Shown here piece by piece: positions 30,231-32,165 of a stretch of 64,000 bases of DNA. Source of the stretch: Thermodesulfobacteriota bacterium. Lineage in GTDB: Bacteria; Desulfobacterota_D; UBA1144; Nemesobacterales; Nemesobacteraceae. The DNA is taken from the NCBI GenBank assembly GCA_965209225.1, contig OZ242379.1:1741289-1805288 (forward strand), given 5' to 3'. The translations under genes were made by a program, and so were the position numbers. Positions within the stretch are counted from its first letter, which is position 1. Each line of letters begins with the position of its first letter. A model generated the notes under the pieces. It was not told the origin of the DNA and ran no database searches. It saw only the letters and a program-made list of their open reading frames with translations.

Positions 30231-32165
30231 ATGATTGAAGTTTTAGGTCACACTGAAGGGAGTGAATACAAAGCGGCCGAGAAGCTAAAAAAACATTTTC
30301 TGAGTATTTGGCCAGACCTTGGGAAAAACGCTAATGATAAGCTTTTATTTTTTGTTGGCTACATGGTGCATGGGGGTAAGGTAGAAGATATCGACTTGGT
30401 CGTCGCAGGTAATTTTACCGATTGTAGAACCGTTCAATTCCCATATAAGGGATCTTTCAGTAGTTTTTCAGTAAAAGACTTTGTGATTTTAGTAGAGGTT
30501 AAGGAGCATGACCCGCGTAATATCCGATTTACAGGAGGAATTGCTTCTGTTAAGTATCGTAACCGTGAAAAGTGGAAATCTGTTACAGAGCAGAGCATAA
30601 AACAGCTACATTCTTTTAAAAATCATTTGGAATCTAAAAGGATAAATTATTCGTTTATCAGTAACCTAATATATTTTACCCAACTTGAACATTCTGATTT
30701 GCCCGATGATGGGAACTTTATTGCATCAACTACGACAATCGAAGAAATTCTATACAGAGCCCATTTTCAATTTACTACGCGCAGGGGCAAACAGCCTGAC
30801 GAAATTATGATGGATTACTCACAAAATTCAGGTTGCTTCGACGGTCTGCGTAAAATCATGGAAGAAATACGTCCAACCCCCATGGATAGACGTAAAATGG
30901 ACCTGATAGCGAGTGGCCATTGGAGAAGAAGGTGGCTGGATGATATAGGCAAAAAACAAATTATAATAAGAGGGCGAGCTGGAACAGGGAAAACGGTTGC
31001 ACTTATGCAACTTGCTGACCATGCTTTTCGTAAACATAACAAGCGTTCTTTATTAATTACGTACAATACAGCACTTGTAGCTGACTTAAAACGACTGAAA
31101 GGACTAATGGGCATTCCAGATAATCTTCTGGACGGTGGTATTTCAGTCTCAACAATTCATTCCTTGATAGGAAAGTTAGCCCGCAAAATAGGCATAGATT
31201 GTGACGAAAGATTTTTTGAACGCTTTGAAGACATAAAAAACCGGATATTGAATTACGTTAGTGAAGGACTCTTGACCCACGAAGACGCAGAAAAGTATAA
31301 AAAATCTTCTCCAGAGAGTTTTGATTTTGACATTGTTTTTGTTGATGAGGGGCAAGATTGGCCAGATAATGAAATTGAGATATTAAGGTGGTTTTTCGGT
31401 TTAGAAAATATTGTTGTGGCAGATGGAGTTGATCAATTTGTGCGAACTCACCAAAATACTGCCAGTAATGGTTGGGATCGAGGGTTAAAACCAGATACTT
31501 ATGAGCGGCATTCTTTACGTAAAGGTGTACGTATGAAAAACAATTTGGCATTGTTTATGTTTGATATGGCTCAGCATATTTTTAAACTTGATACATGGGA
31601 TGTGGACCCGAACGACAATGCTTTTGGCGGACGTGTGCTTATTCTAGAAGGTGATCTTGCTTCTCGACCAGATATATACAAGAAGCTTTGTGAACAAGCC
31701 CAGCAAGAAGGTAATTTTCCAATAGATATAATTGCTTGCGTACCTCCGGCTATGGTTAACAAACAAGAATCAATAGTAGGTATAAAGTACCAAGGTGCTG
31801 GTATAAAGTCTTGGAATGGATGTTCAGCGGATATACGAAGAGAAGTTTTGCCGAGTAAGGACGAATTTCGAATTGTACAATACGAGTCCAGTAGAGGACT
31901 GGAAGGCTGGACAGTTTTTTTGTTTTGTTTTGACAAGTTTTGGGACTTAAAGTATCGAAATGGCATTGATGAAGGCAGGAAACAAGGAGAGATGTTCCCC
32001 GAAGATTTTGCTCGGAGATATGCCGGACGATGGATGATGATTCCTATGTCAAGGGCGATTGATACACTTGTAATAAATTTGAGTTCTCAAGAAAGTTCTA
32101 TCAAGAGTGATTTGCTGAGAATATCAGAGGGCCACGACTGCATAGAATGGCAAAAACTCTCTTAA
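30231..32165 (+). CDS. NERD/PD-(D/E)xK-like nuclease domain fused to a UvrD/SF1-like P-loop ATPase (standalone candidate defence protein)
   Basis: N-terminus …EDIDLVVAG…FVILVEVKEHD… (D…EVK nuclease-like). Walker A GRAGTGKT and Walker B IVFVDEGQDW. C-terminal …RAIDTLVI… UvrD-C-like. Gene is visibly more AT-rich than its gloA and epimerase flanks. Confidence 0.65.
   Translation: MIEVLGHTEGSEYKAAEKLKKHFLSIWPDLGKNANDKLLFFVGYMVHGGKVEDIDLVVAGNFTDCRTVQFPYKGSFSSFSVKDFVILVEVKEHDPRNIRFTGGIASVKYRNREKWKSVTEQSIKQLHSFKNHLESKRINYSFISNLIYFTQLEHSDLPDDGNFIASTTTIEEILYRAHFQFTTRRGKQPDEIMMDYSQNSGCFDGLRKIMEEIRPTPMDRRKMDLIASGHWRRRWLDDIGKKQIIIRGRAGTGKTVALMQLADHAFRKHNKRSLLITYNTALVADLKRLKGLMGIPDNLLDGGISVSTIHSLIGKLARKIGIDCDERFFERFEDIKNRILNYVSEGLLTHEDAEKYKKSSPESFDFDIVFVDEGQDWPDNEIEILRWFFGLENIVVADGVDQFVRTHQNTASNGWDRGLKPDTYERHSLRKGVRMKNNLALFMFDMAQHIFKLDTWDVDPNDNAFGGRVLILEGDLASRPDIYKKLCEQAQQEGNFPIDIIACVPPAMVNKQESIVGIKYQGAGIKSWNGCSADIRREVLPSKDEFRIVQYESSRGLEGWTVFLFCFDKFWDLKYRNGIDEGRKQGEMFPEDFARRYAGRWMMIPMSRAIDTLVINLSSQESSIKSDLLRISEGHDCIEWQKLS

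Follow-up and report, generated by a model that had tools for sequence, protein, structure and literature searches.

A 64,000-nt stretch of Thermodesulfobacteriota bacterium contig OZ242379.1 (hereafter, the window; part of a 2.27-Mb Candidatus Dadabacteria genome) carries, in a clean 2-kb insertion between two housekeeping genes, a solitary intact gene for a 644 aa protein that joins a predicted nuclease-like N-terminal domain to a superfamily 1 (SF1) helicase core. Our preferred interpretation, to which we assign a probability of about 0.6, is that this is a horizontally acquired nuclease-helicase immunity gene acting autonomously, the stand-alone copy of a family whose members are mostly associated with the Druantia system. 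Nuclease-helicase immunity proteins as such are known, and the present family and its link to Druantia appear to be undescribed.

The open reading frame (ORF) lies on the forward strand at 30231-32165, stop codon included, and starts with ATG. The first-pass annotation of the window had located this ORF, given its length and quoted five peptides from its product, all of which were recovered exactly as described: EDIDLVVAG (aa 53-61), ILVEVKEHD (aa 86-94), GRAGTGKT (aa 248-255), VFVDEGQDW (aa 369-377) and RAIDTLVI (aa 608-615). It had also described the gene as more AT-rich than its neighbors, gloA and an epimerase gene. Both neighbors are as described, and a comparison with the 54 non-overlapping window ORFs of at least 100 aa agrees on composition: the GC content of the gene (0.391) is the second-lowest of the 54 (mean 0.484, sd 0.036) and its GC content at third codon positions (0.329) is the lowest (mean 0.508, sd 0.066).

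Related sites were found by searching with the downstream epimerase protein and inspecting the contexts of its closest homologs. L164 and L165 have epimerases with 92% and 88% identity to that of the window; in both, gloA is followed by a spacer of ~233 bp and then by the epimerase gene, with no gene between. In L166 (4053-6000; epimerase 80% identical), the junction instead holds a gene for a 381-aa Peptidase_M78 (ImmA/IrrE-like) protein. An 86%-identical ortholog of the window protein occupies the same gloA/epimerase site in the Candidatus Dadabacteria metagenome-assembled genome (MAG) JAJECI01 (L006; epimerase 82% identical), and in both carriers the GC content of the gene is ~0.39, against 0.48-0.50 in its surroundings, or ~10 points under the flanks. 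With empty sites in two closer relatives, other cargo in a third and low GC content, the gene is horizontally inserted, as had been suspected at first pass. The conserved synteny with normal composition that had been named there as evidence to the contrary was not seen, since only one of five related genomes shares the gene at this junction and the gene has an abnormal composition in each of the two carriers. When metagenomes were scanned with MgsA, which is encoded in the flank, the closest relatives were only 58-66% identical, and of these only L085 keeps the mgsA-gloA pair; a small AhpD-like gene follows gloA there, and the locus is uninformative on the empty site.

The left edge of the variable site coincides with the stop codon of a small lysine-rich ORF, up to which five Dadabacteria loci are alike and after which they diverge. 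This 46-aa ORF (VAEKKVEKLKTRKPVSTRSGKVMPSKKDVETKKRFRKADWEKEIKK) has no Pfam match and directly precedes the epimerase gene in the empty sites. With a slash marking the junction, the sequence is AAATAAG/CTTATGG in empty sites; in the window, the left junction is AAATAAG/AAAGAGGG and the right junction is CCCCTAAG/CTTATGG, the right boundary lying 3 bp ahead of the epimerase start codon. The TAAG tetranucleotide thus repeated at both junctions may have arisen by target-site duplication, through microhomology or by chance. Within the cassette we found no integrase, transposase or replication genes, no terminal inverted repeats and no long direct repeats; a transposon signature was rejected for the lack of such repeats. 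In L166, ~120 bp from the 3' part of the 46-aa ORF are directly duplicated, bracketing the M78 insert, which suggests recombination-based insertion at a hotspot. In Dadabacteria, a candidate phylum that has received little study, this locus is a small hotspot of variable cargo, observed in empty, nuclease-helicase and M78-peptidase states. The JAJECI01 insert ends in a 285-bp 3' tail containing a hairpin plus T-run (GAGCAG...CTGCTC TGCC TTTTTTTT). A deletion of ~270 bp has removed this element from the window cassette and placed the stop codon 18 bp upstream of the epimerase ATG, making read-through likely, and the epimerase gene is now probably co-transcribed with the inserted gene.

Comparison of the window gene with its JAJECI01 ortholog yielded a synonymous divergence (dS) of 0.41 and a ratio of nonsynonymous to synonymous divergence (dN/dS) of 0.17 (0.22 for the N-terminal domain and 0.15 for the helicase), comparable with the values for the flanking genes of the same pair (dN/dS 0.02-0.16, dS 0.30-0.85). 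With this ratio and with all family-invariant residues kept, the gene is being maintained under purifying selection.

An alignment of 42 family homologs, at ~40% identity, delineates the helicase motifs. Residues G248, G251, G253, K254 and T255, D372, E373, Q375 and D376, R555 and R608 are invariant among the 42, and the family consensus reads GRxGxGKT (248-255), DEGQD (372-376), DGxDQxVR (398-405), RGLExW (555-560) and (S/T)RAxDTL (607-613). Since the key residues do not vary, the quoted motifs are real rather than chance strings. The AlphaFold model of the full protein has a mean predicted local distance difference test score (pLDDT) of 84, and Foldseek searches of the PDB returned, at probability 1.0, SLFN11 (E 3e-14), UvrD (3e-11), Upf1 (1.5e-10) and Dna2 (2.5e-8), as well as PcrA and Rep (with UvrD, ~1e-10 to 1e-11), Ighmbp2 and HelD. 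On these matches, the C-terminal ~400 residues, about two-thirds of the protein, are an SF1 helicase core, for which ATP-dependent unwinding or translocation is predicted; the UvrD-like ATPase core proposed at first pass was thereby recovered, with motifs II to VI and the modeled fold. Pfam matches in this part are weak and P-loop-centered (AAA_19, 25.8 bits against a cut-off of 25.1; SLFN-g3_helicase, 24.6 against 24).

The N-terminal domain is probably a nuclease, judging from its conserved residues and modeled fold. E12, D55, E89-x-K91 and Q125 are invariant in the 42 aligned members. Modeled alone (pLDDT 84), the domain consists of a helix (11-26), three strands (37-46, 52-69 and 78-91), a second helix (118-135) and a final strand (144-149), such that D55 begins the second strand, E89-x-K91 ends the third, and E12 and Q125 lie in helices, as in a PD-(D/E)xK core.

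The family is of constant length (~640-670 aa), with full-length matches and a fixed architecture. An exhaustive profile search recovered 599 clusters (50% identity) at E ≤ 1e-30 among 1.84 billion representatives, under generic public names such as AAA family ATPase, DEAD/DEAH box helicase family protein, RNA helicase, DUF2075-containing or hypothetical protein. Looked up by exact sequence, the window protein and P0125 were both without a record in the contig index. We scanned one genome per species, calling ORFs and clustering neighbors, which gave 79 loci and 69 full-length species-level homologs. The 79 loci belong in their majority to Alphaproteobacteria, and otherwise to Acidobacteriota, Binatia, Cyanobacteria, Chloroflexota, Bacillota, Planctomycetota and others.

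Few anti-phage systems are as common as Druantia, whose helicase gene druE adjoins the family gene in 41 of the 69 full-length homologs. In 39 loci the family gene lies directly downstream of druE on the same strand, at a distance of -23 to +45 bp and often with a 4-bp overlap. The upstream neighbor in these 39 loci is a protein of ~1,850 aa that matches the PADLOC DruE1 model with 2,053 bits; it is preceded by DruD (582 bits), with DruA (1,085 bits) further upstream or downstream together with a HATPase_c_3 protein. The druE-linked arrangements are Druantia type I-like, II-like and IV-like. In Polynucleobacter (L049) and on an Alisedimentitalea mobilizable plasmid (L167), the order is DruF2-like, DruE and family member, the plasmid copy ending its DruF-DruE operon beside a restriction-modification system. 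In two Chloroflexota loci (L066, L071) the family member comes first, followed by DruF-like, DruL-like and DruE4 genes; TALON (YprA, NERD nuclease, TPR-CSD and TBP) was considered for these two loci and rejected, as Pfam finds no TPR, CSD or TBP in the neighbors, whose matches are to DruF, DruL and DruE4 instead. In three Bacillota loci (L077, L079, L082), the family gene stands between a sigma-factor-like gene and C3a193 ("possible alternative Cas3", 515 bits, DpdF-like).

Where DruB and DruC would be expected, the alphaproteobacterial operons (L010-L074) encode a protein of ~950 aa that matches nothing in PADLOC or Pfam (e.g. L019, 519-3362), and a HATPase_c_3/MzaB-like protein of ~515 aa accompanies DruA; these two features mark them as a non-canonical type I variant. 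The ~950-aa "c1" protein shows no homology (E 0.15) to the ~950-aa neighbor of the family gene in L004 and L007.

Away from druE, the neighbors within three genes match 75 PADLOC families at E ≤ 1e-10, compared to 14 in an equal-sized control of mgsA neighbors. Among the families matched are DrmA and DrmB, at two loci, and DpdF/C3a193 and MzaA, at three loci each. Five alphaproteobacterial plasmids, of which three are conjugative, carry family members. The druE-linked copies include those of Sphingopyxis sp. J-6 (NZ_CP145810, ~2.81-2.83 Mb), of the Sinorhizobium medicae plasmids NZ_CP140892, NZ_CP140917 and NZ_CP140931, and of the Alisedimentitalea plasmid NZ_CP123587 (41.7-52.2 kb). We detected none in 50,697 phage genomes, and among 2.9 million IMG/VR contigs five carry the gene, three of these together with a whole Druantia operon; a phage origin was rejected on these grounds. 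Genera from several alphaproteobacterial orders share one cluster at ≥90% identity (P0099: Aquamicrobium, Hyphomonas, Aquibium, Cucumibacter, Nitratireductor, Paracoccus, Pacificimonas, Pyruvatibacter and Thalassococcus), and one of its members was seen on 347 contigs; the Druantia-linked version has on this evidence spread between orders very recently.

A neighbor-joining tree, which as a distance tree is indicative only, places the window gene with L006, L005, L004/L007 and L008 as sister to a large Druantia-I-linked alphaproteobacterial clade. This window subclade is mostly stand-alone. Four genes are alone among housekeeping genes: those of the window and L006 between gloA and the epimerase gene, that of L008 (Bryobacterales; 53% identical to the window protein) between pyruvate:ferredoxin oxidoreductase genes and a CBS-domain gene, and that of L169 (53%) after RNase J. 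The L168 copy (67%) follows tricarboxylic acid cycle genes, beside a Type ISP restriction enzyme, a P4-like cII gene and SLFN_AlbA_2; that of L005 (66%) stands beside a pPIWI-associated nuclease; and those of L004 and L007 (70% and 69%) belong to an island that also contains McrBC-like and TIR genes, where the L004 gene divergently adjoins a 939-aa gene plus a split DruE-like gene. In the 64-kb window, tblastn searches with DruE, DruA, DruD, DruF, C3a193 and other recurrent partners returned nothing significant, in agreement with the first-pass remark that no partner gene is present; queries with DruE1, DruE4 and the DruE-like protein gave a single 87-aa match (E 0.001), inside the ORF of a KAP NTPase.

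From sequence and genomic context we infer that the window protein is a nuclease, that its substrate is DNA, and that it probably serves in anti-phage defense; autonomy of the solitary copy is plausible. The usual home of the family is directly after druE, and the window subclade would have turned into a free-standing one-gene cassette. The SF1 motor would use ATP to load and translocate on foreign DNA, for instance at free ends or on single-stranded intermediates of replication or recombination, and the DNA thus reached would be cut by the N-terminal nuclease. The family nuclease-motor may work downstream of DNA structures exposed by large superfamily 2 (SF2) defense helicases. The DruE proteins of Druantia types I and II have Vsr nuclease domains predicted to be inactivated, and type III has an active PLD nuclease (PMC12458937). 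Given those predictions, its translational coupling to druE in many Alphaproteobacteria and its occurrence in type II-like and IV-like arrangements, the family is an obvious effector candidate, which in Druantia-linked relatives would supply the nuclease activity lacking in type I and II DruE. We advance, tentatively, the broader proposal that the family is an unrecognized Druantia component, the missing effector nuclease-motor of types I, II-like and IV, and a detachable one-gene module pluggable into DISARM DrmAB and DpdF/Cas3-like systems. The window copy would act alone, as Nhi-type proteins do, and as a solo intact gene in a clean insertion it offers a minimal construct for questions of autonomy and recognition.

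Several observations weigh against an autonomous nuclease-helicase defense gene. Foldseek on the isolated N-terminal domain gave a best E-value of 0.03, with weak matches including MspJI, Cas4, Bax1, McrC, EcoRI and PaqCI, and a profile of the domain had no match among PDB sequences. The NERD family (PF08378) scored 13.6 bits (E 0.099) on the window domain, below its cut-off of 22.1, and was absent from the Pfam matches of the full-length protein; it is the only recurrent Pfam family among isolated N-terminal domains, 12 of 16 of which match it at E ≤ 1 (best 1.6e-4), in every case below threshold. We therefore term the domain PD-(D/E)xK/NERD-like, because its topology fits but its NERD matches are sub-threshold and no Foldseek match is significant; of the NERD/PD-(D/E)xK block described at first pass, the invariant site and the topology stand and the NERD label is weak. 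A promoter and terminator scan around the gene found 8 promoters versus 5.4 expected from shuffled sequence, no excess. The unit of the PADLOC enrichment is the family, not the independent protein, and generic helicases make up many of the models. Finally, both sister clades of the tree are nested among other DruE-linked branches, so that dependence on DruE may be ancestral, and a solo copy lacking that partner might have no activity.

This dependence is the substance of an alternative that we regard as rather unlikely, in which the gene is a trans-acting or orphaned Druantia accessory that needs a DruE/YprA-type helicase, the partner being elsewhere in the genome or the gene a stranded inactive part. 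The linkage of 41 of 69 full-length homologs to druE, often through overlapping stop and start codons, speaks for it, and so do the nesting of the window clade among DruE-linked clades, the 70%-identical L004 relative that is still beside a split DruE-like gene, and the same pattern in ARMADA II, where a YprA helicase is followed by a nuclease-UvrD-like helicase (PMC12458937). The solitary state noted at first pass is real for the window and for most of its subclade, but a single-gene system is not typical of a family found mostly beside druE, and in other loci beside DrmAB or DpdF/Cas3-like genes. No DruE, DrmA or DpdF homolog is present in the 64 kb, however; at least four subclade members, in different phyla, are alone among housekeeping genes; and an intact gene with a dN/dS of 0.17 over a dS of ~0.4 is hard to square with a dead relic.

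A housekeeping or accessory DNA-repair nuclease-helicase of the Dna2, AddA/RecB or HelD type, unrelated to immunity, would share the nuclease plus SF1 architecture and the housekeeping flanks, and weak profile matches to HelD exist (6wvk, E 7e-4; NF041464, 17 bits), but we consider this very improbable. Repair equivalogs in NCBIfam score far below their cut-offs (HelD_BACSU, 17 against 419; STM2767, 22 against 550), with none near; the locus lacks the gene in the two closest relatives, and its composition is aberrant; the ~600 clusters are patchily spread over many phyla; and the recurrent neighbors are Druantia, DISARM, restriction-modification, McrBC and TIR genes. The conventional repair helicase that the first-pass annotation had named as a reason to abandon a defense role was thus not encountered. 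About equally improbable is a selfish or mobile-element function (plasmid or integrative and conjugative element exclusion, addiction, or a replication helicase-nuclease) that rides with defense islands. Family members do occur on conjugative and mobilizable plasmids and a few IMG/VR contigs, and the window cassette lies in a site taking variable cargo; yet the cassette is devoid of mobility and replication genes and of repeats, phage genomes gave no match, three of the five viral contigs carry the whole Druantia operon, and the L167 plasmid copy ends a DruF-DruE operon beside a restriction-modification system. A STAND-type signaling NTPase in place of a helicase we regard as next to negligible and rejected: nSTAND_NTPase5 (PF25199) is the top Pfam match by E-value and is present in 42 of 42 members, but it scores 27.4 bits against a cut-off of 34 over ~45 residues round the P-loop (240-284), and the C-terminal 400 residues form the two-RecA SF1 fold with motifs II to VI.

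Table 1. Features of the inserted gene, its protein and its immediate flanks, in window coordinates unless given as residues (aa).
Feature	Position	Strand	Basis
gloA, left flank	29529-29912	-	Glyoxalase in orthologous locus
Conserved 46-aa lysine-rich small ORF, GTG start in window (context, not cargo)	30002..30142	+	Homologous in five Dadabacteria loci
Left junction TAAG, overlapping the small-ORF TAA stop and recurring at the right junction	30140..30143	+	Nucleotide alignment
Inserted single-gene cassette, 2,037 bp, GC 0.389	30144..32180	+	Same junction empty in L164 and L165
Leader, 87 bp, part of insert; Shine-Dalgarno-like AAGGGA at 30217-30222, 8 nt before ATG	30144..30230	+	Conserved between window and L006
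Nuclease-like/SF1 helicase coding sequence	30231..32165	+	ORF call, family alignment, model, Foldseek
Predicted PD-(D/E)xK-like N-terminal domain (~aa 1-190), alpha-beta-beta-beta-alpha-beta	30231..30800	+	Alignment, model
Putative catalytic residues	E12; D55 (30393-30395); E89 (30495-30497); K91 (30501-30503); Q125	+	Alignment
SF1 (UvrD/Rep- and Schlafen-group-III-like) two-RecA ATPase/helicase core, aa 236-644	30936..32162	+	Foldseek, Pfam, invariant motifs
Walker A, GRAGTGKT	30972-30995	+	Alignment
Walker B/motif II, DEGQD (aa 372-376; UvrD-type DExQD)	31344-31358	+	Alignment
Motif III-like, DGVDQFVR	aa 398-405	+	Alignment
Motif V-like, SRGLEGW	aa 554-560	+	Alignment
Motif VI-like, SRAIDTLV	32049-32072	+	Alignment
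3' tail remnant, 15 bp, ending in right-junction TAAG (32177-32180)	32166..32180	+	Comparison with L006 insert
NAD-dependent epimerase/dehydratase, right flank, heading an epimerase-ccmABCEF run	32184..33239	+	Context

Further variable sites were observed in the vicinity. A second small variable insertion (38326-39574) follows a ccmH-like gene and comprises a 137-aa ORF with no Pfam match (38326-38739, GC 0.384), a Gp49/HigB-like toxin gene (38875-39243) and an HTH_37/HigA-like antitoxin gene (39248-39574); at the equivalent position the sister genome L001 has nothing and L166 has a Gp49 plus HTH_37 gene. The KAP-family P-loop NTPase mentioned above (41467-42750, 427 aa, PF07693, E 1.5e-40, GC 0.424) lies between cytochrome c and MFS-type genes and is lacking at the corresponding position of L001, and may mark a third cargo site within 12 kb. 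KAP NTPases are often defense-associated. The cytochrome c gene itself (39653-40896) consists of two overlapping ORFs (39653-40324 and 40231-40896), versus a single 424-aa ORF in L001, which could reflect a frameshift, a pseudogene or an assembly error. In a sister-species assembly (L002, 15195-17072), a GmrSD-type (type IV restriction) gene lies between ccmB and ccmC, and the near-identical contig L001 is without it. Further upstream, a tmRNA gene (10332-10682, 177 bits) is followed by a low-GC stretch (0.42 at 11001-12000) with a 119-aa ORF on the reverse strand (11260-11619); since tmRNA genes are common integration sites, this stretch (10332-12000) may be an element remnant.

Among the closest known systems, Druantia types I, II and IV offer a genomic association, with family members sharing an operon with druE, usually as its last gene with stop/start overlap, in DruA/DruD/DruE1, DruF2/DruE2 and DruF/DruL/DruE4 contexts. 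The window protein itself matches no PADLOC Druantia model and no defined component (DruA-H, L, M), and with DruE absent from the window, the locus does not qualify as a Druantia system. The family is not modeled in PADLOC v2, and none of the defense databases searched names it. In the literature searched, which lay outside subscription journals, the gene is not part of published Druantia sets, including those of the YprA-family survey and 2026 mechanistic preprints, and a worked-out Druantia mechanism was found for the two-gene type III only. In ArmD of ARMADA II, too, a nuclease-type domain precedes an SF1 helicase of the UvrD family, and the armD gene, the last of its operon, directly follows that of a YprA-family (DruE-like) helicase (PMC12458937). 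ArmD differs in its RelE-like RNase N-terminus and GajB-like helicase, the window protein being PD-(D/E)xK/NERD-like, with no RelE match, scores of 13-19 bits against PADLOC GajB models, and no BrxHII or PglX neighbors seen.

Nhi of Staphylococcus epidermidis, which the first-pass annotation had offered as a model, resembles the window protein in combining nuclease and SF1-type helicase in one polypeptide, with the P-loop ~200-250 residues from the N-terminus in both. Nhi acts alone, a single gene being enough for anti-phage defense that is triggered through the phage SSB or replication complex, and the proposed outcome is degradation of phage DNA at such complexes (PMC10732053). Nhi, Hna, Hachiman HamAB and Gabija, which are single-chain or paired nuclease-helicases of defense, are described as acting on phage DNA replication or recombination intermediates (for Nhi, PMC10732053). 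The window protein is not, however, a member of the Nhi family: the PADLOC model PDLC02372 scores 26.4 bits (E 6e-7), its best stretch aligning residues 238-276 with profile positions 197-232 of 470, that is, 36 positions at the P-loop; and the present family, unlike Nhi, is mostly embedded in multi-gene systems. PADLOC AbiO scores 24 bits. C3a187 ("NERD+UvrD") has the same described architecture and scores 23 bits over the ATPase region, which indicates a related architecture rather than the same family. Dna2, AddAB and RecB also couple a PD-(D/E)xK nuclease to an SF1 motor, but the window family has no sequence membership among them and no Fe-S (iron-sulfur) motif was noted in it, and its distribution is patchy, driven by horizontal transfer and located in defense islands. 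The Schlafen group III/DUF2075 helicases (SLFN11, SLFN14; PF09848) differ in their N-termini, where a SLFN core is unrelated to the PD-(D/E)xK-like domain, and their Pfam match spans only the first 47 helicase residues; they nevertheless provide the best structural matches (E 3e-14), and PF09848 is matched by 40 of 42 family members. Schlafens are antiviral proteins in which an N-terminal nuclease domain is coupled to a C-terminal SF1 helicase.

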